63,568 nt of DNA from NCBI GenBank assembly GCA_027005735.1, contig JALTLF010000103.1, forward strand, positions 1 to 63,568, written 5' to 3'. The notes beneath the pieces are model-generated. The model made no database searches. It was given only the letters and a program-made list of their open reading frames with translations, and had not been told where the DNA came from. This DNA comes from Chromatiales bacterium. Its GTDB lineage: Bacteria; Pseudomonadota; Gammaproteobacteria; CAMYNG01. Every line of letters starts with the position of its first letter. Positions within the stretch are counted from its first letter, which is position 1. The position numbers were made by a program, and so were the translations under genes. This document shows positions 1,214 to 63,568 of this stretch, in pieces.

Positions 1214-1897
1214 ATGCCCTACCTCGTGCTGCTGGTACTCATCCTTGCCGCCATCTACCTGCCCAACTTCTGGGCGCAACACACCTTCAGGCGCTACGCC
1301 GGTGAACGCGAGGACATCCCCGGCAGCGGCGGTCAACTGGCGCGCCACCTGCTGGATCGCTTCGAGATGGGGGAGGTAAAAGTCGAAACCACCGAGGCCG
1401 GCGATCACTACGACCCGCAGGCGCGCGTGGTGCGCCTGAGTCCGGACAACTTCAACGGCCGCTCCCTGACCGCCATCGCCGTGGCCGCCCACGAGGTGGG
1501 CCATGCCATCCAGCACCACCGTGGCGAACGCCTGCTCGCCCTGCGCACGCGACTGGTGGGCAAGGCCAATGCCGCGCAGAAACTGGGGGCCGGGATCCTC
1601 ATGGCCGCGCCGGTGCTGATGCTGGTGTCACGCTCGCCGTGGATAGGCCTGTTGATGCTCGCCGCCGGACTGCTCAGCATGGGCGCGGCCACCGTGGTGC
1701 ACCTTGTCACCCTGCCAGTGGAGATCGACGCGAGCTTCGGCAAGGCCCTGCCCATCCTCACCGAGGGCGACTACGTGCGCGAACGGGACCGGCCGGCCGT
1801 GCGCCGCATCCTCAGGGCCGCGGCCTTTACCTACGTTGCCGCCTCGCTGGCCAGCCTGCTCAACATCGCACGCTGGATCGCCCTGTTCCGGCGCTAA
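1214..1897 (+). CDS. Membrane zinc metallopeptidase (YugP-like)
   Basis: DHYDP motif, AAHEVGHA (HExxH), TLPVEIDAS and AAAFTYVAA; the TAA stop is the left end of MITE copy 1. Confidence 0.85.
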   Translation: MPYLVLLVLILAAIYLPNFWAQHTFRRYAGEREDIPGSGGQLARHLLDRFEMGEVKVETTEAGDHYDPQARVVRLSPDNFNGRSLTAIAVAAHEVGHAIQHHRGERLLALRTRLVGKANAAQKLGAGILMAAPVLMLVSRSPWIGLLMLAAGLLSMGAATVVHLVTLPVEIDASFGKALPILTEGDYVRERDRPAVRRILRAAAFTYVAASLASLLNIARWIALFRR

Positions 1898-2102
1898 ATA
1901 CGTGTTCCGAATTCCCGATCAACTGAGAATAAGCGGATTGCCCTATCTGCCTGTCTCTCGCCGGGGTGGTGTTTACGGACACGCGGTACATACGTCCCTG
2001 TACGCTCGACAGCCGCTTCCCTGCGGCTGACGGTCCGTAAACACCACCCCGGTGAGAGCCTGATGTCGGTAAACTGTAGTGGAATTCGAAACACGTATTT
2101 AG
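1894..2102. mobile_element. Palindromic MITE-like element, copy 1 (subtype A)
   Basis: 22-bp terminal inverted repeats CTAAATACGTGTTCCGAATTCC / GGAATTCGAAACACGTATTTAG; internal 26-bp inverted repeat and central CAGCCGC/GCGGCTG hairpin; homologous copies at 5801, 36542, 40282 and 63373. Confidence 0.85.
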
Positions 2103-2207
2103 GCCCGGCACGCCCGCCGACCGAATACAGGGCACCCGAAACCGGGGAATGTCCAAGCAAAACGCCGGGGCCCTGCCCCGGCGTTGCGTGTCGATGGCCC
2201 GAGCGGC

Positions 2208-5688: not shown

Positions 5689-5800
5689 GCCTCTCTCCCG
5701 CTTATTTTCCTTGTTCATCAGGCGATTATACGCAAGAAGCCCGACGGCGCGCACGCCCCGTCCCGGCAAAGGGGACGCAGGTCTCATTTTTGCCGCCGAC

Positions 5801-6008
5801 CTAAATACGTGTTCCGAATACCCGATCACCCTGGAATAGCCGGATTGCCTCGTTTGCCTGTCTCTCTCCGGGGCAAGGTTTACGGACACGCGGTACATAC
5901 GTCCCTGTACGCTCGACAGCCGCTTCCCTGCGGCTGACGGTCCGTAAACCTTGCCCTGGAGAGAGTTCGCACCTGTAAACTGTACTGGAATTCGGAACAC
6001 GTATTTAG
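5801..6008. mobile_element. Palindromic MITE-like element, copy 2 (subtype B)
   Basis: CTAAATACGTGTTCCGAAT...ATTCGGAACACGTATTTAG, 208 bp; the right end forms the TAA of speA. Confidence 0.85.
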
Positions 6009-7897
6009 TCTTCCAGGTAGGTATAACCCCGCATGCCCGCTTCCAGCTCCTCGAGCAGGGCGCGGCGCTGCGCCGCCGCCAGGCGGCTCTCGCCCAGCTT
6101 GCCACGCAGGCGCGCCAGCAGGGCCTCCGGGTCGAAGTGCACGTAGCGCAGGACACTCTCCACCGTGTCGCCGTGCAGCGGCTCCACCATGCGCGGCCGG
6201 CCCGCCGCGTCGATGACCACGTGCACCGAGTGGGTGTCGCCGAACAGGTTGTGCATGTCGCCGAGGATCTCCTGGTAGGCACCGACGAGAAAGATCCCGA
6301 GGTAGTAGGGCTCGCCGGGGCGCAGCTCGTGCAGGGGCAGGGTGGACTCCACCCCCGCGGCATCCACGTAGTCGTCGATGCGGCCGTCGGAGTCGCAGGT
6401 GATGTCCTCGAGCACCGCGCGACGCGTGGGCCGCTCGTCGAGGCGATGCAGGGGCACGATGGGAAAGATCTGCTTGATGGCCCAAACGTCGGGCAGGGAC
6501 TGGAAGATGGACATGTTGCAGAAATAGCGGTCGGCGAGCTTGTCGTTGAGTTCATCGAGCAGTTGCCGCTGGGAAGCGCTGCCGGGGGGGAGGCGGTCGC
6601 GCACGCGCCGGGCGATGGCCTGGTAGAGCAGCTCGGCGCGGGCGCGGGCAGCGAGATCCAGCTCACCGCGGGTGTAGGCGGCCTCCACGGCATCGAGGCG
6701 CTGGCGCGCGGCAAGATAGATCTCGCGAGGCGCGCACTCGGGGGCGCCGGCCTCGAGAGACCGGAGATCGGCATACAGCGCCGCCACCGGCGGCGGGGCG
6801 GGGCCGCTCTCCGGCGGCGGCACCACCTCGCCCACCGCGGCGCGATCGATGACGTTGGTGATGAGCACCGCGTGATGGGCGGTGAGCGCGCGGCCGGACT
6901 CGCTCATGATGTCCGGCGGCGTCAGGCCCTGTTCGCGGCACACGCTGGCGAGGCTGCCGACGATGGCGCGGGCATACTCGTCGAGGCCGTAGTTCATGGA
7001 GAACTCGTCGCGCGAGCGCGTGCCGGCGTAGTCCACGCTGAGTCCCCCGCCCACGTCCACGCAGTCCGGCGTGGCGCCCAGGCGATGCAGCTCGGCGAAA
7101 TAGCGCGCCGCCTCCGCCATGCCCCGCGCGATGTCGTCGAGGTTGGCGATCTGCGAACCCATGTGCACATGCAGCATGCGCAGGCAGTCCAGTCGTCCCG
7201 CGGCACGCAGCTCCTCCACCGCCTGCAGGACCTGGCAGGCGGTGAGGCCGAACTTGGCCTTCTCGCCGCCGGTGTTCTGCCACTTGCCGCGGGCGATGGC
7301 GGCCAGGCGCAGGCGCAGGCCGAGGCGCGGGCTCACTTCCAGGGCACGGGCCTCCTCCAGTACCAGGGCCAGCTCCGAGGGCTTTTCGATGACGATGTAT
7401 ACACGGTGGCCGAGGGACTGGCCGAGCAGGGCGAGGCGGATGTACTCGCGATCCTTGTAGCCGTTGCAGACGATGGTGCCCCCCGGCGCGGCCAGCGCCA
7501 GCACCGCCAGCAGCTCCGGCTTGCTGCCTGCCTCCAGCCCCATGCCCTCGCCGCTGGCAAGCAGTTCCTCCACCACGCGGCGCTGCTGGTTGACCTTGAC
7601 GGGATAGACGGCGGTATAGCGGGCGGCGTAGTCCTGCGCCGCCATGGCGCTGCGGAAGGCCGCCATGAGGGCCCGTGCGCGGCCCTGCAGGATGCCGGGG
7701 AAGCGCACCAGCACCGGCGGCGAGAGCCCCTCCGCCTGCAACTGCCCGACGAGGGCATGCAGATCCACGCCGGCGTGCCCGTCCTCGCCGTCGGGGCGGA
7801 CCACCAGGTGGCCCCGCTCATCCACGTCGAACAGGCCTTCTCCCCAGCGGGGCAACTGGTACATGGCGCGGGCGTCGTCGGGGCTCCAGGCTGTCAT
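6005..7897 (-). CDS. speA: Biosynthetic arginine decarboxylase
   Basis: YPVKVNQ (PLP lysine), GLEAGSKPEL, HVHMGSQI, DVGGGL, TCDSDG and GAYQEILG. Confidence 0.95.
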   Translation of the reverse strand: MTAWSPDDARAMYQLPRWGEGLFDVDERGHLVVRPDGEDGHAGVDLHALVGQLQAEGLSPPVLVRFPGILQGRARALMAAFRSAMAAQDYAARYTAVYPVKVNQQRRVVEELLASGEGMGLEAGSKPELLAVLALAAPGGTIVCNGYKDREYIRLALLGQSLGHRVYIVIEKPSELALVLEEARALEVSPRLGLRLRLAAIARGKWQNTGGEKAKFGLTACQVLQAVEELRAAGRLDCLRMLHVHMGSQIANLDDIARGMAEAARYFAELHRLGATPDCVDVGGGLSVDYAGTRSRDEFSMNYGLDEYARAIVGSLASVCREQGLTPPDIMSESGRALTAHHAVLITNVIDRAAVGEVVPPPESGPAPPPVAALYADLRSLEAGAPECAPREIYLAARQRLDAVEAAYTRGELDLAARARAELLYQAIARRVRDRLPPGSASQRQLLDELNDKLADRYFCNMSIFQSLPDVWAIKQIFPIVPLHRLDERPTRRAVLEDITCDSDGRIDDYVDAAGVESTLPLHELRPGEPYYLGIFLVGAYQEILGDMHNLFGDTHSVHVVIDAAGRPRMVEPLHGDTVESVLRYVHFDPEALLARLRGKLGESRLAAAQRRALLEELEAGMRGYTYLED

Positions 7898-8055: not shown

Positions 8056-8910
8056 ATGCGCCAGACCATCGACGACCGCCACTGGTTCACCGAGCCCTGC
8101 GAGGAAGGCGGCTCGGCCTTCTCGTTCCGGCTCGGCCCCGGCGGCAAGCTGCACGAGGAAACCACGCCCTACCAGACCATCGCCATCTACGACACGGCCT
8201 TCTACGGCACGCTCATGGTCATCGACGGCTTCGTCATGCTCTCGGCGCGGGACAACTTTCTCTACCACGAGATGATGAGCCACCCGGTGCTGTTCACCCA
8301 CCCGGCGCCCAGGCGCGTGCTCATCATCGGCGGCGGCGACTGCGGCACCCTGCGCGAGGTGCTGCGCCACCCCGGCGTGGAATCGGCCGTTCAGGTGGAG
8401 ATCGACGAGCGCGTCACGCGCCTGGCCGAGCAGTACTTCCCGGAGCTGTGCGAAGCCAACCACGACCCGCGCGCGCAATTCCGGTTTACCGATGGCATCA
8501 AGTGGGTGGAGGAGGCCGAGGCCGGCAGCTACGACGTCATCATCGTCGACAGCACCGATCCCATCGGCCCCGCCGAGGGCCTGTTCCAGGAACCCTTCTA
8601 CCGCGCCTGCCACCGCGCGTTGGGCGAGGATGGCCTGCTGGTACAACAGAGCGAATCGCCCCTCTACCACGCAGAGCTGATGCGCGACATGGCCGCCGCC
8701 ATGCGCGCCGGGGGCTTTGCCGCCACCCACAGCCTGTACTTTCCGCAGCCGGTTTACCCTTCGGGCTGGTGGAGCGCCACGCTGGCGGGCAAGCACGATT
8801 CGCTGACCACCTTCCGCGAGGCCGACGTGGATGCGCGGCCCTTCGCCACGCGCTACTACAACCGCGACATTCACCGCGGCGCGCTGGCCACGCCGGAATT
8901 CATGATGTAG
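8056..8910 (+). CDS. speE: Spermidine synthase (polyamine aminopropyltransferase)
   Basis: YHEMMSH, VLIIGGGDCGTLREV, VEID, DSTDPIGPA and YPSGWW; GAGGAG RBS before ATG 8056. Confidence 0.95.
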   Translation: MRQTIDDRHWFTEPCEEGGSAFSFRLGPGGKLHEETTPYQTIAIYDTAFYGTLMVIDGFVMLSARDNFLYHEMMSHPVLFTHPAPRRVLIIGGGDCGTLREVLRHPGVESAVQVEIDERVTRLAEQYFPELCEANHDPRAQFRFTDGIKWVEEAEAGSYDVIIVDSTDPIGPAEGLFQEPFYRACHRALGEDGLLVQQSESPLYHAELMRDMAAAMRAGGFAATHSLYFPQPVYPSGWWSATLAGKHDSLTTFREADVDARPFATRYYNRDIHRGALATPEFMM

Positions 8911-9240
8911 GAGCTCCGTCCCGGCGCGAAGTTTAGCGCAGATCCATCGCGGCGAGGGCGCGGCTCCTACGGATCGGCGAAACCCCTTACTGCTGCAGGA
9001 ACGCTGCCTCGACGCGATTGCCCGGCACCGCTGTCGCCGCGAGGGCGCGGCTCCTACGGATCGGCGAAACCCCTTACTGCTGCAGGAACGCTGCCTCGAC
9101 GCGATTGCCCGGCACCGCTGTCGCCGCGAGGGCGCGGCTCCTACGGATCGGCGAAACCCCTTACTGCTGCAAGAACGCTGCCTCGACGCGATTGCCCGGC
9201 ACCGCTGTCGCCGCGAGGGCGCGGCTCCTACGGATCGGCG
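8907..9240. repeat. GTAG-type REP cluster / BIME-like array with 87-bp tandem period
   Basis: Unit starts at 8952, 9039, 9126 and 9213; contains the reverse complement of GTAGGAGCCGCG-CCCT-CGCGGCGA alternating with a degenerate forward REP (GCAGGAACGCTGCCTCGACGCGA); the first REP overlaps the speE stop. Confidence 0.85.
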
Positions 9241-21876: not shown

Positions 21877-22191
21877 TTAGCTCCGCGACGGTCGGTTGCC
21901 GCCCGAGTCATCGAGAACAGGCTCAACCTCACGATGAGGACGGGCAATAATGTGCGCCGCTACCAGGCCATCGCCAACGCGCTCGCAGGCATCTGCGCCG
22001 GCACGGACGGCGGCATTTACTGCGCCGGTTTCGCCGCGAACGAGAACGGTGACATAGCCGCCACCGACAAACTCCCGCCCGATAAGGCGAACTTCTGCGG
22101 CCTTGGTCATGGCGTCCGCCGCTTCGATGGCGGGAACCAATCCGCGCGTTTCAATCATACCCAGTGCAATGCCAAAGTTTTCATTGGCCAT
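21877..22191 (-). CDS. csoS1: Carboxysome hexameric shell protein CsoS1
   Basis: GIALGMIETRGLVPAIEAADAMTKAAEV...HIIARPHREVEP. Confidence 0.97.
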   Translation of the reverse strand: MANENFGIALGMIETRGLVPAIEAADAMTKAAEVRLIGREFVGGGYVTVLVRGETGAVNAAVRAGADACERVGDGLVAAHIIARPHREVEPVLDDSGGNRPSRS

Positions 22192-22233
22192 GGCAAAATC
22201 TCCTGTTCATTCAGTTAAATTCAATACCCGGCA

Positions 22234-22542
22234 TCAGGCCTTGGCTGCGTTGCCGCCTGTAGGCAATACCGGCTCCACTTCACGGTGAGGGCGAGCGATG
22301 ATGTGTGCGGCAACCAGCCCATCACCTACACGCTCACAGGCATCTGCGCCGGCACGTACCGCCGCGTTAACAGCACCCGTCTCACCGCGAACCAGTACGG
22401 ACACATATCCGCCACCGACGAATTCGCGCCCAATGAGACGAACCTCGGCCGCCTTGGTCATGGCATCGGCGGCTTCAATCGCCGGCACCAGACCTCGCGT
22501 CTCAATCATTCCCAAAGCAATACCATAGTTGTCGTTAGCCAT
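22234..22542 (-). CDS. csoS1: Carboxysome hexameric shell protein CsoS1 (paralog)
   Basis: Near-identical BMC domain with a different C-terminal tail. Confidence 0.97.
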   Translation of the reverse strand: MANDNYGIALGMIETRGLVPAIEAADAMTKAAEVRLIGREFVGGGYVSVLVRGETGAVNAAVRAGADACERVGDGLVAAHIIARPHREVEPVLPTGGNAAKA

Positions 22543-27398: not shown

Positions 27399-28811
27399 TC
27401 AACCAACGTCCAGCTTGTCAACGGTTTCAAATTCGAATTTGATTTCCTTCCAGGTTTCCATTGCCATGGCCAGCTCAGGACTATGCTGCGCTGCCGTAGT
27501 AAGGATTTCCTTACCCTCTTTCTCGAGGTGACGTCCCTCGTTACGGGCCTTAACACATGCCTCTAGTGCAACGCGGTTGGCGGCGGCACCTGCGGCGTTG
27601 CCCCAGGGGTGGCCCTGGGTACCGCCACCGAACTGAAGCACGGAATCATCGCCGAAGATGGTGACCAGAGCCGGCATGTGCCAGACATGGATACCACCGG
27701 ATGCCACGGCGAACACGCCGGGCATGGAGCCCCAGTCCTGATCAAAAAACACGCCACGCGAGCGATCTTCCGGCACGAACGATTCGCGCAGCTGATCTAC
27801 AAAGCCCAGGGTCGAGTTGCGGTCACCTTCGAGCTTGCCGACAACGGTTCCGGTATGCAGATGATCACCGCCGGAGAGGCGCAGGCACTTGGCCAGAACG
27901 CGGAAATGGATACCGTGCTTGGGATGGCGGTCGATTACCGCGTGCATGGCGCGGTGAATATGCAGCAGCATGCCGTTCTTCCGACACCAGTTCGCCAATC
28001 CCGTATTGGCAGTGAAACCACCAGTCAGGAAATCATGCATGATGATTGGCATACCAAGTTCCTTGGCAAACTCGGCGCGCTCGTACATGTCTTCGGGGGT
28101 CGCAGCTGTCACGTTTAGATAATGGCCCTTGCGTTCCCCAGTTTCCTGCTCAGCCTTCATGATGGCCTCGGCTACAAATTCAAATCGGTCGCGCCAGCGC
28201 ATGAACGGCTGCGAGTTGACGTTTTCGTCATCCTTGGTCAGGTCGAGTCCGCCACGCAGGCACTCATAAACCGCACGGCCATAGTTTTTGGCTGAGAGGC
28301 CCAGCTTGGGCTTGATGGTACAACCGAGCATCGGACGGCCATACTTGTTGAGGCGATCGCGCTCCACCTGGATCCCGGCTGGCGGCCCGCCACAGGTCTT
28401 GATATAGGCAATGGGAAAGCGAATATCTTCCAGGCGGAGGTGCTTGAGCGCCTTGAAACCGAATACGTTACCCACGAGCGAGGTCAGGACATTGACGATG
28501 GAGCCCTCCTCGAACAGGTCGATGGGATAGGCCACAAACGCATAGAAGGACTCCGAATCCCCCGGTACATCTTCGATTCGGTATGCGCGGCCCTTGTAGT
28601 ATTCGAGATCGGTGAGCAACTCAGACCATACCGTACTCCAGGTACCGGTGGATGACTCCGCCGCGACTGCCGCGGCGACCTCTTCACGCGGCACGCCCGG
28701 CTGGCCCGTCACCTTGAAACAGGCCAGCAGGTCGGTGTCCAATGGCACATAGTCGGGGGTCCAGTACTTCTCGCGGTACTCCTTCACACCCGCTTCGTAT
28801 TGTTTAGCCAT
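27399..28811 (-). CDS. cbbL: Rubisco large subunit, form IAc (carboxysomal)
   Basis: [11 protein letters not shown] active-site motif; [10 protein letters not shown]; heads the cso operon. Confidence 0.98.
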
Positions 28812-34653: not shown

Positions 34654-36333
34654 CTATCTCCACCTCAGGGCAACATTCAAACGCGCAGCTGTGCGGAGCA
34701 GAATCCGAGAGACCCAGGCATAGATATCGGCCAGATAAAACTCACGCGAAATCATCGCATACAAGATCAGCCGTACACGCCCAGGATCTCTACTCCCTGT
34801 CGTTCCATTTTTTTCCGAGTAGTAGGTCAACAGCCAGCCTGCTACGATGATCAGCGTCGTTGTCACGACCAGAATATCGAACCAGAAGATGTCTATACTC
34901 GAGGCATGATGCATAAGTTCCAGGAACTGCGCATCGGGATACAGGAAATTCTCGAAGACATGGCTAATGAGTGCATAACCCAACACTACGATAACAAATG
35001 ACGATAGCACCATCGCAAGCAAGCGCCCGGGTCGTTCGGTTCGCATGCGGTAAGTTGCAAAAATCAGCTGGGCGCCAGTCACCCATCCGAAGAACAATAG
35101 CACCACGGCACCCTGCTTCTGGAAAAAATCCTGCTGTACAGCTAGATGGGCAAGAACCAGCACCACAACGGGTATGACAAGTGTTACGGCGGCCATAAAC
35201 AGCCATGGCGGTTGACGTCTTGCAGGTTGTTTCTCGATCACAAATGTATAAAGTTCATCCTTTGGAATCCCGTCATCGTGTCGCGCTTCACCAATTACGC
35301 TACCGGCACCAAGAAAGAGCGCGCCTTTGAAGAGTCCGTGGGCAATCAGGTGGTATATGGCGAGCGAGAATGCGCCGACGCCACATTCCATAATCATGAA
35401 ACCCATCTGCCCCATGGTTGAGTAGCCAAGCGATTTCTTAATGTCATTTTGCGCGAGCATCAGAACCGAACCGATTACTGCCGTAACCAGCCCTACAATG
35501 AACAAAAGGTGCAAAATATCTCCTGAGTACACGAAGACGGGCGCAAAACGATTTATCAGAAACCCGCCAGCATTAACGATGCCAGCATGCATAAGCGCGG
35601 AAACGGGGGTAGGACCGTCCATCGTGTATGGCAACCAATTGTGCAGAAGAAACTGGGCCGATCTGGCGAAGGCCGCCACCGACAGGAGGATAGCGGCAGC
35701 CTGCGTCGCCGGGATACCGAGGATACTCATTGCAGCGGGTTCTTCACTCACCTGCTCGAGAAGATCCGGGATCGACCAGGTACCGTACGTATCAGCCAGA
35801 ATCACCGCAGCCAACACCAGGGCTATATCACCAAGGCGATAGGTCAGGAATGTCCAGAAAGCGTAACGCAGACTGTTCGGCCTGCAAGTGTCATGACCAA
35901 GGAGAAAATAGAGCAGTACTCCAATCAAATGCCACGCGATAAGCAGTGTAAGCAAATCCCCTGCGGCGACCATAACCAGAAGGGTGGCAGTCATCAGGTC
36001 AAGGAGCACAAAGAAACGTGCGTAGCCGGCTTCTTCCGCCATATACCTGATGGAAAACTTATGGACGATGAAGCTTATGCCGGCAATCAAGACGCCCATA
36101 ATCGCGCTTAGGGGATCTGCGAGCAGATATCCCCATGATCCAGCTATGCGTATACCAGCAAATTCATTGCCCTTCACCTCAAGCCCGAGTCCCACCAATG
36201 CCAGCAGGAATGTCAACAACGCTACCGATGTGCTTAGCCAGGCAACATGACGACGTAATTTCTCCTGGAACAGCAGAACCAGCACAGCCGAAAGGATCGG
36301 TAGAAGGGGTATTGCTGCAACCAGAAAATTCAT
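34654..36333 (-). CDS. dabB: Inorganic carbon transporter subunit DabB (NuoL-like)
   Basis: RSAQF..HNWLPYTMDGPTPVSALMHAG, DIKKSLGYSTMGQMG and HGLFKGALFL; in an operon with dabA. Confidence 0.9.
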   Translation of the reverse strand: MNFLVAAIPLLPILSAVLVLLFQEKLRRHVAWLSTSVALLTFLLALVGLGLEVKGNEFAGIRIAGSWGYLLADPLSAIMGVLIAGISFIVHKFSIRYMAEEAGYARFFVLLDLMTATLLVMVAAGDLLTLLIAWHLIGVLLYFLLGHDTCRPNSLRYAFWTFLTYRLGDIALVLAAVILADTYGTWSIPDLLEQVSEEPAAMSILGIPATQAAAILLSVAAFARSAQFLLHNWLPYTMDGPTPVSALMHAGIVNAGGFLINRFAPVFVYSGDILHLLFIVGLVTAVIGSVLMLAQNDIKKSLGYSTMGQMGFMIMECGVGAFSLAIYHLIAHGLFKGALFLGAGSVIGEARHDDGIPKDELYTFVIEKQPARRQPPWLFMAAVTLVIPVVVLVLAHLAVQQDFFQKQGAVVLLFFGWVTGAQLIFATYRMRTERPGRLLAMVLSSFVIVVLGYALISHVFENFLYPDAQFLELMHHASSIDIFWFDILVVTTTLIIVAGWLLTYYSEKNGTTGSRDPGRVRLILYAMISREFYLADIYAWVSRILLRTAARLNVALRWR

Positions 36334-36541: not shown

Positions 36542-36749
36542 CTAAATACGTGTTCCGAATACCCGCTCACCCTGGAATAACCGGATTGCCTCGTCTGCCT
36601 GTCTCTCTCCGGGACAAGGTTTACGGACACGCGGTGCTTACGTCCCTGTACGCTCGACAGCCGCGTCCCTGCGGCTGACGGTCCGTAAACATTGCCCCGG
36701 AGAGAGTTCGGACCCGTAAACTGTAGTGGAATTCGGAACACGTATTTAG
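36542..36749. mobile_element. Palindromic MITE-like element, copy 3 (subtype B)
   Basis: Full 208-bp copy with both terminal inverted repeats, upstream of dabB. Confidence 0.85.
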
Positions 36750-36961: not shown

Positions 36962-38161
36962 TTAGGTCCGCATCTGTCTCATCAGCTCATGCTCATCGAG
37001 GATTTCGTAGTCGTTTGTAATTACCTGCCCGGCTACGGGACTGAAATCGTTCTTCATATACTCCATGTAAGTCGGGTGAGATTTGCAGACCTCGATAACT
37101 TCTTCATGGGCTAAACGCACGAGCCAGCAGTACCGATATCGACTGGTGTCGTCCTTGGCGCGGCCGATACGTACGTCCAGCACGCCGGGTATGGTAACCA
37201 GCTTTTGTTGTCCCTTGCGCAACATGATCTGAATCACGGCGGGATCAGTCTCGTCACTGTCGTAGACGACCACATGCTCCACGTTGTTCCACATGCCACA
37301 CTGGATGAGCACCTCGGCGGCGCGCCCCGCACTGCGCCAGGCCTGCATCACGCGAGACACCTCTGTCACCATTGCTTCATGCGAACCTGCCATAAGACCT
37401 CGGTATGCGACCTCCTTTTGCAAAACGTTCTTCCCCAGAGTTGTCACGAATTTATCCGCCAGCGCGGTAAAGTAGTTAATCTTCGCCACGCCGTTATCGA
37501 TGAGCTTATGGTATTGCTGGTCGCTTAGGCCGGTGCCCCCATGAATTACTAGCGGAATTCCAACGCTTTCATTGATACGCGAAAGCCGACTGTAGTCGAG
37601 GCGTTTCTTGCCGTTAGCCTGTCCATGTACGGTGCCGATTGATATCGCCAGGAAATCTACACCGGATCGCTCCACATAGACCTTCGCCTCACTTGCGGAC
37701 GTCTGTACTGGCTGGTTACCTTCACCGTCACGCGGACTCATCCCTGCAACATGACCCAGCTCGCCTTCGACAGGAACACCGCAACCATGCGCGAGTTTCA
37801 CGGCCTCGCGTGTTCTCTCGATATTCCGTGGAAGCTCCTCATGAGAACTGTCGAACATCACGACATTACAACCGAGCCGAATGGCGGACTGGACGGATGC
37901 CACACTTTCGCAGTGGTCCATGCTCACCGCCACCGGGACACTGGAGCGTTTCGCAGCTGCCAGCACCGCAGGCATCAGCAATTCGGCGTCGAACATGTCG
38001 AAGTGAGGTTCGACCACGTTCAGAATCACGGGCGACCTTGCCTGCTCCGCGGCGTAGATCACCGCTCGCAGGAACTCTAGGTTGACTACTTCAAATGCCC
38101 CGACTGCGTAATGATTGTCGTAGGCATGGCAAAGCAGATCTCTGGTATTGACCAACGCCAT
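36962..38161 (-). CDS. Class II fructose-bisphosphate aldolase fused to a C-terminal Dabb (stress A/B barrel) domain
   Basis: YAVGAFE, SMDHC, VEGELGH, ISIGTVHG, LVIHGGTG and AKINY; C-terminal VEHVVVY..IPGVLDVRIG..HPTYMEY. Confidence 0.85.
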   Translation of the reverse strand: MALVNTRDLLCHAYDNHYAVGAFEVVNLEFLRAVIYAAEQARSPVILNVVEPHFDMFDAELLMPAVLAAAKRSSVPVAVSMDHCESVASVQSAIRLGCNVVMFDSSHEELPRNIERTREAVKLAHGCGVPVEGELGHVAGMSPRDGEGNQPVQTSASEAKVYVERSGVDFLAISIGTVHGQANGKKRLDYSRLSRINESVGIPLVIHGGTGLSDQQYHKLIDNGVAKINYFTALADKFVTTLGKNVLQKEVAYRGLMAGSHEAMVTEVSRVMQAWRSAGRAAEVLIQCGMWNNVEHVVVYDSDETDPAVIQIMLRKGQQKLVTIPGVLDVRIGRAKDDTSRYRYCWLVRLAHEEVIEVCKSHPTYMEYMKNDFSPVAGQVITNDYEILDEHELMRQMRT

Positions 38162-39322: not shown

Positions 39323-40285
39323 ATGAGAACCTACACGCAGCTTATCCAACAGGAACGATACCTAATTTATATCCTGAAGAAAGAGAAATATAGCCAGGCG
39401 CGGATTGCCGCGCTTCTGGGGCGCGATAAATCCACCATCAGTCGGGAGTTGCGGCACAATCGGGGCCAGAAAGGCTAGCGGCCCAAACAGGCTCACAAGC
39501 GGGCGCTTTAGCGGCGTCTCGGCAAGGCTCAGCCCCGTATTGGGGGGCGAGTCTGGCATCGGGTCAGGGTGCTGCTCCGCAAGGAATGGCGTCCTGAGGA
39601 GGACGCAGGGCGGATAGCGATGGAACAAGGCGTCTCTATCAGTCATGAGTGGATTTACCAATACATTTATGCGGATAAACGCTCAGGCGGCAACCTGTAC
39701 CGGTATCTGCGCTGCCAGAAGGCTCGACGTAAGCGTTGTGCCGCCTATGACCGGCGTGGCTGTATCCCCAACCAGGTCTCGATTGACGACCGCCCGGCCA
39801 TTGTCGACAGCAGGCGACGCTTCGGCGACTGGGAAGGCGATACCGTGATCGGCAAGGGCCACCGGCGGTGCCCTGGTGACGCTGGTCGAGCGCAAGTCGC
39901 TGTATACCATTATCCGGTCCGTCCTCCACAAGACGGCCAGGGCGGTTCGAGAGGCTGTCGTAGAGGGACTGACCACCTATATCGACTGGGTGCATACCAT
40001 TACCTATGACAACGGGCGGGAGTTTGCCGACCATGAAGGCATGGCCAGCGACCCTGATGCTCGTATCTATTTCACGCACCCTTATGCCTCCTGGGAACGC
40101 AGACTGAACGCGAATACCAATGGCCTCGTCCGGCAATACTTTCCGAAAGACCGGGACCTGACCACCGTCACTCAATATGAAGTCGAGCAGACCATGGATA
40201 AACTCAATCACCGCCCAAGGAAGTCGCTGGGCTATCGGACACCCTATGAAGTCTTCTTCAACACCATGACTTCATTAACCGTTGC
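39323..40285 (+). pseudogene. IS30 transposase pseudogene
   Basis: STISRELR, ISHEWIY, WEGDTVIG and TYDNGREF; in-frame TAG at 39476 and 39509; +1 frameshift near 39866; NENTNG changed to NANTNG. Confidence 0.9.
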
Positions 40286-40339
40286 CCCGGAGAGAGTTCG
40301 GACCTGTAAACTGTAGTGGAATTCGGAACACGTATTTAG
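40282..40339. mobile_element. MITE copy 4, right-hand 58-bp fragment (subtype B)
   Basis: TTGCCCCGGAGAGAGTTCGGACCTGTAAACTGTAGTGGAATTCGGAACACGTATTTAG, nearly identical to the end of copy 3. Confidence 0.85.
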
Positions 40340-47321: not shown

Positions 47322-47398
47322 TGGCGCGCCCGACAGGATTCGAACCTGTGACCTTCGGTGTCGGAGACCGATATTCTATCCAGCTGAACTACGGGCGC
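47322..47398 (-). tRNA. tRNA-Arg (CCG)
   Basis: GCGCCCGTAGTTCAGCTGGATAGAATATCGGTCTCCGACACCGAAGGTCACAGGTTCGAATCCTGTCGGGCGCGCCA; 77 nt, cloverleaf with encoded CCA. Confidence 0.95.
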
Positions 47399-60798: not shown

Positions 60799-62217
60799 TT
60801 ACTTGTGCGAAACGTCCAGCTTGTCGACCGTGTCGAACTCGAACTTGATTTCCTTCCAGGTCTCCATGGCCATCTTGAGCTCGGGGCTGTGCTTGGCGGC
60901 CTCGGTAAGGATCTCCTTGCCCTCCTTTTCGATTTCACGACCTTCGTTGCGTGCCTGGACACAGGCCTCGACGGCAACACGGTTGGCGGCGGCGCCGGCA
61001 GCATTACCCCAGGGGTGACCCAGCGTACCACCACCGAACTGCAGCACGGAATCGTCACCGAAGATGCTGACCAGAGCAGGCATGTGCCACACGTGGATAC
61101 CACCGGAGGCAACCGGGAAGACGCCGGGCATGGCGCCCCAGTCCTGGTCGAAGAAGATACCGCGACTGCGGTCTTCCTTGATGTAGGAATCACGCATGAT
61201 GTCGATCCACCCCAGGGTGGCGTCGCGGTCACCTTCCAGCTTGCCGACAACCGTACCGGAGTGCAGGTGGTCGCCGCCGGACAGGCGCAGGATCTTGGTC
61301 AGCACGCGGAAGTGGATACCATGGTGCGGATTGCGATCGAGCACGGCGTGCATGGCGCGGTGAATGTGCAGCAGCATGCCGTTGTCCTGACACCATTTTG
61401 CCAGCTGGGTGTTGGCCGCCCAGCCGCCGGTGATGTAGTCGTGCATGATGATGGGCGCACCGATTTCCTTGGCGTACTCGGCGCGCTTCATCATCTCGTC
61501 GGAGGTCGGCGCGGTGACGTTCAGGTAGTGACCCTTGCGCTCGCCGGTTTCGGCCTCGGCCTTCTGGATGGCCTCCATGACGAAGTCGAAGCGATGACGC
61601 CAACGCATGAAGGGCTGGGAGTTGACGTTCTCGTCGTCCTTGGTGAAGTCCAGACCGCCACGCAGGCCTTCGTAGCAGGCGCGGCCGTAGTTCTTGGCCG
61701 ACAGGCCCAGCTTGGGCTTGATGGTGCAGCCGAGCAGCGGACGACCGTACTTGTTGAGAATATCGCGCTCGACCTGGATGCCCTGGGGCGGACCATTACA
61801 GGTCATGACATAGGCCAGCGGGAAGCGTACGTCTTCCAGGCGCAGGGCGCGCAGGGCCTTGAAGCCGAAGACGTTGCCCACCAGCGAGGTCATGACGTTG
61901 ACCACGGAACCTTCTTCGAACAGGTCGATGGGATAGGCCACGAAGGCGTAGAAACAGGTGTCGTCGCCCGGTACGTCCTCGATGGCGTAGGCGCGGCCCT
62001 TATAATAGTCCAGGTCGGTGAGCAGATCGGTCCAGACGGTGGTCCAGGTACCAGTGGAAGACTCGGCGGCCACGGCGGCGGCGACTTCTTCGCGGGGTAC
62101 GCCCGGCTGCGGGGTGACCTTGAAGCATGCCAGGATATCGGTGTCCTTCGGGGTATATTCCGGCATCCAGTAAGTTTCGCGGTACTCTTTCACGCCCGCG
62201 TCGTATTTCTTGGCCAT
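60799..62217 (-). CDS. cbbL: Rubisco large subunit, form IAq
   Basis: [11 protein letters not shown] and [10 protein letters not shown]; C-terminal DVSHK; followed by cbbS and cbbQO. Confidence 0.98.
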
Positions 62218-62431: not shown

Positions 62432-63376
62432 ATGAACGTGACCCTGCGCCAGCTGCATGTCTTCGAGGCCGTCGCCCGCCACCTCAGCTACACCCGCGCG
62501 GCCGAAGAGCTGCACCTCAGCCAGCCGGCGGTCTCCATGCAAATCAAGCAGTTGGAGGACAATATCGGTCTGCCGCTGCTGGAGCGGCTGGGTCGGCGCG
62601 TCTATCTCACCGAGGCCGGCCAGGAGATGTACCGCTACAGCCACGCCATCGCCCTGGAACTGGACGAGGCCGAGGCGGTCCTCGAGCAGCTCAAGGGCCT
62701 GCAGGCCGGGCGCCTGAAGGTCGCCGTGGCCTCCACCGCCTCGGCCTTCGCCACGCGCATGCTGTCGCTGTTCCGCAAGCGCTTCGCCGGCATCACCGTG
62801 AGCCTCGACGTCACCAACCGCGCGGGCCTGCTGGCCCAGCTCGGCAACAACGAGAAGGATCTCGTCATCATGGGCAAGCCGCCCGAGGACATGGCCCTCG
62901 CCACCCGCAGCTTTGCCGACAATCCCCTGGTGGTCGTCGCCGCCCCTGACCACCCGCTGGCCGGCGAGACCCGCATACCGCTGGCGCGCCTGCGCGAGGA
63001 GACCTTCGTGGTGCGCGAACCGGGCTCCGGTACCCGTACCGCCATGGAGCGCTTCTTTGCCGCCCATGACCTGACCCTCGACAGCCGCATGGAAATGAAC
63101 GAAAACGAATCCCTCAAGCTCGCCGTGCAGGCGGGCATGGGGCTCGGCATCGTCTCCATCCACACCCTCGAGCTGGAACTGGCAACCGGGCGACTGGTGA
63201 TCCTCGACGTGGAGGACATGCCCATCATGCGCCACTGGTACCTTGTGCACCGCGAGGGCAAGCGCTTGCCCCCGGTGGCGGAGGCCTTCCGTGACTTCGT
63301 CCTCAGCGAGGGACGCGAACTGATACCGACGCTGATCGGCACCACGGGCCAGGCGCTGCCAGATTCCCAATCCTAA
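62432..63376 (+). CDS. cbbR: LysR-type regulator CbbR
   Basis: VTLRQLHVF, YTRAAEELHLSQPAVSMQIKQLE and REPGSGTR; divergent from cbbL; the TAA is the left end of MITE copy 5. Confidence 0.93.
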   Translation: MNVTLRQLHVFEAVARHLSYTRAAEELHLSQPAVSMQIKQLEDNIGLPLLERLGRRVYLTEAGQEMYRYSHAIALELDEAEAVLEQLKGLQAGRLKVAVASTASAFATRMLSLFRKRFAGITVSLDVTNRAGLLAQLGNNEKDLVIMGKPPEDMALATRSFADNPLVVVAAPDHPLAGETRIPLARLREETFVVREPGSGTRTAMERFFAAHDLTLDSRMEMNENESLKLAVQAGMGLGIVSIHTLELELATGRLVILDVEDMPIMRHWYLVHREGKRLPPVAEAFRDFVLSEGRELIPTLIGTTGQALPDSQS

Positions 63377-63495
63377 ATACGTGTTCCGAATCCCCGATCA
63401 ACTGAGAATGACCGGATTGCCCTGTCCGCCTGTCTCTCGCCGGGGTGGTGTTTACGGACACGCGGTACATACGTCCCTGCACGCTCGACAGCCGC
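63373..63495. mobile_element. MITE copy 5, left 123 bp, truncated (subtype A)
   Basis: Matches copy 1 up to CAGCCGC, then switches to unrelated sequence. Confidence 0.85.
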
Positions 63496-63568
63496 GGTCG
63501 CTCCGGGCGTGGCCCAGGCCAGCTTCTCGACCTCCGGTCTCACCTTCTCCTGCCCTCTCGCGACACTA

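Follow-up and report, generated by a model that had tools for sequence, protein, structure and literature searches.

A CTAG-targeting MITE family that rebuilds host stop codons in uncultured Gammaproteobacteria

A family of short hairpin elements in uncultured Gammaproteobacteria inserts at the palindrome CTAG and duplicates its central TA, and a host gene that ends in C-TAG is left with an in-frame TAA. We studied it from a 63,568-nt contig of a Chromatiales bacterium (GenBank JALTLF010000103.1; hereafter the window). The elements very probably form a non-autonomous MITE family that enters C|TA|G by means of a transposase supplied in trans and takes over stop codons passively. The target, the TA duplication, the TAG-to-TAA conversion, the presence/absence polymorphism and the distribution of insertions are observed directly. 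In the mechanism that we propose, members carry the inverted repeat AATACGTGTTCCGAAT at both ends and an interior that would fold into a long hairpin. The transposase would cut 5'-C|TA|G-3' and duplicate the TA, and the TA/CTAG signature suggests an enzyme of the IS630/Tc1-mariner DDE type. CTAG is about ten-fold depleted in these genomes and insertions inside genes would be purged, which would leave intergenic CTAGs and C-TAG stop codons as the usable targets. Since both termini begin with A, a C-TAG stop would be rebuilt as an in-frame TAA on either strand with the protein unchanged. Target specificity, CTAG scarcity and purifying selection would thus suffice for the take-over of stop codons.

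The repeat noticed earlier in this DNA is real, and its copies lie where they had been placed. A search of the window at ≤3 mismatches gives eight matches to its terminal inverted repeat (TIR) core, AATACGTGTTCCGAATNCC, where shuffles give an expectation of 0.01, and the same copies were recovered by a repeat search of the window and MAFFT alignment. The five copies of the original prediction are five loci, of which only three are full in the window (~203 nt between the TA repeats); one is a right-end fragment of ~60 nt and one runs off the window end. Each of the eight ends reads C-TA|AATACGTGTTCCGAAT, that is, C-TA|AATACG... or ...CGTATT|TA-G, just as had been described. The TIR measures 16-19 nt, AATACGTGTTCCGAAT(N)CC, and is present at both ends of every full copy. 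The cut copy, c5, is complete in contig L099 from the window's species and measures 291 nt there, showing that its truncation reflects the window end only and is not genomic. The window end is probably an assembly-graph branch. We dropped the idea that its terminal ...gcgacaCTA is a nested-insertion junction, as L099 has an intact CTAG at that place.

The element forms a single long near-perfect hairpin (RNA, -110.8 kcal/mol, z = -10.3; DNA, z = -12.7). Its copies have no coding capacity, the ORFs through them being read-throughs of neighbours or antisense artefacts. In an Rfam search of the window the element matched no family, the sole match being a tRNA, and a search of a plasmid collection gave no match to the element. 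Short, non-coding, bounded by TIRs and a TA duplication, dispersed and polymorphic, the element has the features of a MITE, although the scans described below found no autonomous partner with its TIRs.

Three window genes take their stop codons from these copies (Table 1). The element end had been proposed to be the TAA stop of the peptidase, speA and cbbR genes, and the ORF listing and the family matches agree on all three. The junction between c1 and the peptidase gene is identical in six other assemblies. Using the exact protein of the aldolase-like gene beside c3, we sought a c3-free allele; all contigs returned keep the same spacing, with c3 present throughout.

Table 1. Element copies, associated genes and other features in the window and in related contigs (loci outside the window carry their contig label).
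Feature	Location	Strand	Description
Copy c1	1895..2101	+	full, TA + 203 nt + TA; left TA + first A = TAA stop of Zn-metallopeptidase gene
Copy c2	5802..6007	+	full; right TA + last T = TAA stop (minus strand) of speA
Copy c3	36543..36748	+	full, intergenic, not on a stop codon
Copy c4	40276..40338	+	right-end fragment, last ~60 nt + TA; abuts 3' end of IS30-family pseudogene
Copy c5	63374..63568	+	left 195 nt of 291-nt long variant; TA + A = TAA stop of LysR/cbbR gene
TIR cores	1897, 5804, 36545, 63376	+	AATACGTGTTCCGAATNCC
TIR cores	2099, 6005, 36746, 40336	-	AATACGTGTTCCGAATNCC
Zn-metallopeptidase gene (PF04298)	1214..1897	+	ends ...CGC TAA; stop 1895-1897 from c1
Stem-loop, G+C-rich	~2160-2190		probable terminator of the peptidase gene
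speA, arginine decarboxylase (NCBIfam speA)	6005..7897/8035	-	ends ...GAC TAA; stop 6005-6007 from c2
LysR-family cbbR-type regulator gene	62432..63376	+	ends ...TCC TAA; stop 63374-63376 from c5; divergent from RuBisCO cbbL
DabB-like gene	34654..36333	-	neighbour of c3
Class II aldolase-like gene	36962..38161	-	neighbour of c3
IS30-family transposase pseudogene	39323-40316		in-frame TAG within free CTAG at 39475
Low-G+C island	~20000-41000		putative acquired island
Second RuBisCO large-subunit gene	27399..28811		in island; 81% identical over 300 nt to 60799..62217
Duplicated small genes	21917-22542		in island
Tandem repeat	8947-9240		87-nt period, ~3.4 units, 98-99% identical; intergenic, after gene 8056..8910
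tRNA	47325-47398		sole Rfam match in the window
Free CTAGs at stop codons	13823, 15934		two of the window's free CTAGs
Hypervariable 4-nt block	c1 1966-1969/2024-2027		alignment A3 columns 71-74/147-150
Core orientations compared	L012:4557-4761, L036:568-770		compared with L062 and window c1-c3
Nested or composite loci	L072:1-430, L059:4035-4447, L050:10122-10428, L044:1758-1985		copies nested within copies
C-TG-flanked ends	L026:6712, L048:1753		thyA and lepB, each with TGA stop
C-TG-flanked ends	L044:1760, L072:426, L005:1925/2011		L005 with TG on both sides
Shared TIR, unlike interiors	L017:6982, L033:1616-1754, L041:1864-1972, L046:3611, L064:2419, L065:917-1203, L077:110, L006:6550/L037:10181, L021:495-769		lower-G+C organisms
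c2 site, 83% relative	L032:11080-12110		dehydrogenase gene coupled to speA
c2 site, window	5760-6010		last ~20 nt of dehydrogenase gene left of c2
c2 site, Ga0256830 strain	L059:3980-4460		same speA junction, other left flank
HyVt-448 cbbR 3' end	L088:3915-3945, L090:1725-1750		TGA stop 9 nt upstream of cCTAGtacg

The cbbR locus gives the target site in both states. In contig L087 from metagenome sample Ga0256830, the cbbR gene is 98% identical to that of the window and the next gene lies 145 nt away. The empty site there reads gattcccaatcCTAGtacggccttgc (short forms gattcccaatcCTAGtacggcc and ...caatcCTAGtacggcc), and its TAG is the cbbR stop. The filled site in L099 and the window reads gattcccaatcC-TA-AATACGTG...(291 nt)...ACGTACT-TA-Gtacggccttgc, with the junction flanks ...caatcC-TA-[291-nt element, AATACG...GTACT]-TA-Gtacggcc. 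The L087/L099 pair is exactly a TA duplication at CTAG, with TCC-TAG turned into TCC-TAA. A paralogous pair comes from the long variant itself. Its uninterrupted centre reads ...cgcgacaCTAGtgcatcc... (shorter form ...gcgacaCTAGtgcatcc), and in L072 a second copy occupies the central CTAG, as ...cgcgacaCTA|AATACG...CGTATT|TAGtgcatcc; the left nesting junction is the same in L059, L050 and L044. Both empty sites available in close comparison, L087 and the long-variant centre, thus read CTAG. The orthologous pair and the paralogous pair agree with the original prediction that insertion into C-TAG yields C-TAA and leaves the protein intact.

The expectation that empty orthologous sites read CTAG holds for L087, where c5 is missing. 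Copies c1 and c2 are missing from an 83%-identical relative (L031/L032), whose corresponding stops, CGC-TAA-CAG and GAC-TGA-GC, read C-TAA-C and C-TGA-G and not CTAG. The intergenic DNA of that relative is too diverged to align, so these two sites are uninformative rather than contradictory.

After removal of duplicates and obvious chance matches, 85 non-redundant ends with a usable flank were left. CTA stands next to 66 of them (78%), CTG next to six and other triplets next to 13. About 15-20% of the ends lack CTA, and some of the CTG flanks give TGA stops, at thyA and lepB, where the TGA probably arose from TAA after insertion. At the L005 locus TG stands on both sides as a direct repeat, compatible with TA having later changed to TG or with a target that is relaxed.

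Two further observations concern the CTAG sites themselves. The cbbR gene of the hydrothermal-vent MAG HyVt-448, 86% identical, ends with a TGA stop 9 nt upstream of a conserved cCTAGtacg motif, the same motif that holds the TAG stop and the insertion site in the window's lineage. The CTAG 3' of cbbR thus predates its role as a stop codon. The central CTAG of the long variant is often targeted, producing copies nested within copies. 'One-and-a-half' composites, consisting of half a host copy and a full nested copy, are again flanked by CTA...TAG, as if they had been moved or recombined as units.

The hosts of the family are uncultured sulfur-type Gammaproteobacteria. Genes identical to those of the window occur in the MAG GCA_027058725.1 and in REYS20-1 metagenome assemblies. 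Scanning GTDB species representatives for the exact pattern, we recovered these ends in the Chromatiales MAG JALVOC01, in HyVt-448 (DRKU01), in Thiohalophilus and Sedimenticola, and in others, and a scan of JGI metagenomes added 47 further loci, mostly from sample Ga0256830. Copy lengths range from 83 to 291 nt, with clusters at ~83-96, ~200-205 and ~252-254 nt and singletons of 109, 139, 275 and 287 nt. The same 16-19 nt TIR with its CTA flank also surrounds unlike interiors of 109-287 nt in organisms of lower G+C (0.42-0.50). Several MITE families thus appear, from their sequences, to share one TIR, and a TIR common to several families would presumably be served by one kind of transposase. 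This makes AATACGTGTTCCGAAT, common to MITE families with unrelated interiors, a handle for a transposase search.

Genome and metagenome scans together gave 64 non-redundant insertions, and 21 of them (33%) lie exactly on the stop codon of a called gene. Genes were called by a home-made simple codon-usage finder, which reproduces the database gene calls on L032. Pfam or NCBIfam support was found for 19 of the 21 overlapped genes, namely those for NuoN, UbiD, RsgA, glucokinase, an epimerase, a GST, ThyA, SSB, an S4-domain protein, a GGDEF regulator, LepB, an AAA ATPase, LigT, a glycosyltransferase, CbiM and a TetR protein, plus the three window genes. SSB ends canonically in ...DDDIPF, and the profile matches of ThyA and speA extend through the final residue, showing that native C-termini are preserved. 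L-type and R-type ends stand at gene stops about equally often, that is, the element occurs there in both orientations. Two long frame-0 ORFs that end at element ends (L004+ and L025-) are antisense artefacts of ilvD and of a TetR gene and were excluded.

CTAG itself is by far the most depleted palindromic tetramer. In a pooled background of ~449 kb, a biased sample of MITE-bearing contigs that mixes several organisms and includes no complete genome, 117 CTAGs were observed against 1649 expected from base composition or 330 from a trinucleotide model. The observed/expected ratio is 0.07 in the pool and 0.09 in the window (20 sites versus 221). The pooled sites divide into 12 at stop codons, 45 intergenic, 47 intragenic and 13 inside MITEs, so that stop codons make up 21% of the non-coding free sites and 11.5% of all free sites. 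Comparing occupied sites (21 stop, 42 other) with free non-coding sites (12 stop, 45 intergenic), we obtained an odds ratio of 1.9 (p = 0.16); against all free CTAG sites it is 3.8 (p = 0.001). Of the 42 insertions away from stops, just 3 have a flank within a called gene, and it is this near absence of intragenic insertions that produces the excess over all free sites. The stop-codon association is far above what random insertion would give by chance, matches the prediction from CTAG specificity combined with the loss of gene-disrupting insertions, and is not significantly above the non-coding CTAG background. Stop codons had been called a safe harbour for the element. This stands in that the overlap of 33% exceeds the share of stops among all CTAGs; it does not significantly exceed their share among non-coding CTAGs, so the harbour is a passive outcome.

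The interior of the element is variable in a structured way. A core of ~52 nt between inverted GTTTACGGAC/GTCCGTAAAC arms is found both ways round with respect to the asymmetric outer arms, and the cores of L036 and L062 are exact reverse complements of each other, which amounts to a flip-flop inversion across the stem. Just outside GTTTACGG lies a 4-nt block that is hypervariable between copies (CGAC, TGGT, TGCC, CGCC, CAAG; a 5-nt AGGAC in L012) and in nearly all of them complementary to its counterpart in the opposite arm. Compensatory changes affect four consecutive pairs in this block and one further pair at A3 columns 64/157. The complementarity of the block could come from selection on the hairpin or from templated repair within the palindrome.

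These features bear on a reading in which the copies at stops are retained as useful, the hairpin, placed where the 3' UTR begins, stabilising the mRNA, offering RNase III a target or blocking translation coupling in the manner of Correia and ERIC elements. We consider this rather unlikely. The hairpin is indeed very stable and is maintained by compensatory changes at five pairs, clustered in the 4-bp block, but templated repair within the palindrome can keep the arms complementary without any RNA function. Occupancy of stop-type CTAGs is nominally higher than that of intergenic CTAGs (the odds ratio of 1.9 given above), yet this excess fails to reach significance (p = 0.16), two thirds of the copies lie away from stops, and there is no orientation bias at stops. 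Copy c1 lies between the peptidase stop and the G+C-rich stem-loop that, from its sequence, is probably the terminator of the peptidase gene; a consensus terminator scan did not flag this stem-loop. If the terminator is right, c1 would be transcribed as part of the peptidase 3' UTR. Against a regulatory role, consensus scans of c1 and c2 give no sigma-70-like promoter and no intrinsic terminator. A broader version, which we regard as quite improbable, would make CTAG MITEs an evolutionary force that converts C-TAG to C-TAA and adds pressure to avoid CTAG, with their hairpins, carrying the hypervariable self-complementary 4-bp block and the invertible core, co-opted as 3'-UTR modules that set mRNA fate.

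No autonomous element and no IS630-type transposase with these ends was found in the window, in the flanks of solo ends, or in the genome, metagenome and viral scans. The scans for TIR pairs used exact 16-19-mers only, and they returned no pair at the IS-like spacing of 1-1.5 kb in genomes or metagenomes. ORFs beside solo TIR ends in L006, L008, L017, L046, L064 and L066 are ordinary genes, and the viral-contig matches are single 16-mers that look like chance. The window had been said to hold no cognate transposase, which is accurate: its sole transposase is the IS30-family pseudogene. IS630 is the classic CTAG/TA element. The earlier assignment to the IS630/Tc1 type keeps the TA duplication and the CTAG preference in its favour, and against it no IS630 with these ends was found; it is a putative assignment from the footprint.

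Mobilisation by a DDE transposase of a different TA-duplicating family, such as the IS427 group of IS5 or the PIF/Harbinger-like enzymes, is unlikely. Some IS5-family subgroups make 2-4 bp duplications at YTAR-type targets, which counts for such an enzyme. IS5-family ends typically start with GA or GG, whereas both ends of the element start with AATACG. A precedent on the target side is MITEPsy1, an IS5-linked MITE that targets CTAG/YTAA (PMC3189936). MITEPsy1 and IS5 duplicate 4 bp, however, and here TA alone is duplicated; strict CTAG targeting with TA duplication is the classic behaviour of IS630 and IS870. A REPIN- or PATE-like hairpin moved as single-stranded DNA by a Y1/HUH enzyme (RAYT or IS200/IS605-type) and inserted 3' of CTA, with no duplication and the second TA belonging to the element, is most unlikely: the filled CTA[...]TAG formally fits insertion after CTA of an element ending in ...TA, and the whole element is a hairpin like REPINs, but perfect 16-19 nt TIRs reach the very tips in place of same-orientation subterminal hairpins, both orientations are equally frequent, composites are bounded by any two outward-facing TIRs flanked by CTA/TAG as for TIR-recognising DDE enzymes, and no Y1 transposase was seen in any flank.

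The surroundings of the copies show further rearrangement. Where the window has c2, the 83% relative carries a gene for a 300-aa NAD-binding dehydrogenase that is translationally coupled to speA (GAC TGA GC ATG). The window keeps only the last ~20 nt of this gene, left of c2, giving a deletion of ~0.9 kb at c2, and a Ga0256830 strain has the same speA junction with another left flank. From these sequences, the c2 site points to a MITE-associated deletion or rearrangement, and the elements would thus accompany local deletions and rearrangements. The IS30-family pseudogene, whose 3' end runs into c4, consists of an N-terminal HTH_38 ORF and two frameshifted segments that align with NF033563 positions 49-148 and 151-267. 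It lies in a low-G+C island that also holds the second RuBisCO large-subunit gene, the duplicated small genes, a 1027-aa ORF followed by the DabB-like gene of the proton-antiporter family, the class II aldolase-like gene and a beta-carbonic anhydrase gene. The island looks like an acquired carbon-fixation or carboxysome-type island. Two of the window's 20 free CTAGs are stop codons, and eight of the nine intragenic ones fall in this island. A tandem repeat with an 87-nt period lies elsewhere in the window (Table 1).

For annotation of these Gammaproteobacteria, C-TAA-ATACG... marks a MITE junction, at which contigs break. The stop-codon MITE is a tidy case of a known kind of element and not a new mechanism, and in our literature searches no paper set out the CTAG-to-stop-codon logic for MITEs. 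Correia (NEMIS) and ERIC elements are likewise hairpin-forming MITEs with a TA target, and co-transcription with neighbours is a Correia/ERIC feature. For Correia and ERIC, processing by RNase III/E, IHF sites and promoters have been documented experimentally; unlike them, c1 and c2 contain no promoter-like site in consensus scans.

The target behaviour has its closest parallel in the IS630 family. IS870 of Agrobacterium vitis and ISMt1 are described as inserting at CTAG and using its TAG as the stop of their own ORF (PMC13630536, citing Fournier 1993). IS630 of Shigella sonnei, IS870 and ISMt1 resemble the element in 5'-CTAG-3' insertion and TA duplication. They are autonomous, at ~1.1-1.2 kb, and the TAG ends their own transposase ORF, whereas the element is non-coding, at 83-291 nt, and rebuilds the host's stop from TAG to TAA. 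The RUP element of pneumococcus, a textbook bacterial MITE linked to IS630-Spn1, has a TA target, and an IS630-family transposase is believed to move it in trans (PMC2229807). It shares with our element the short length, the lack of coding capacity, the TIRs and the TA target. RUP differs in being 107 bp long and in having TIRs that match a known IS of the same genome, and the accessible part of the account reports neither a CTAG restriction nor an overlap with stops (PMC2229807).

The nearest parallel for the position at gene ends is in Coxiella burnetii, where QMITE1 and QMITE2 share 1-50 bp with the 3' ends of functional genes (ubiB by 2 bp, a glutamate transporter gene by 3 bp, kdgK by 1 bp), a preference that the authors left unexplained (PMC5896051). 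The QMITE overlaps vary in length and sometimes alter the C-terminus, whereas the overlap described here consists in every case of the stop codon alone, and the CTAG target accounts for it. In a genome where CTAG is scarce, a strict requirement for it steers a third of the surviving insertions to stop codons, which offers a simple mechanistic reason why MITEs so often touch the 3' ends of genes, the pattern that the Coxiella QMITE study had left unexplained (PMC5896051).
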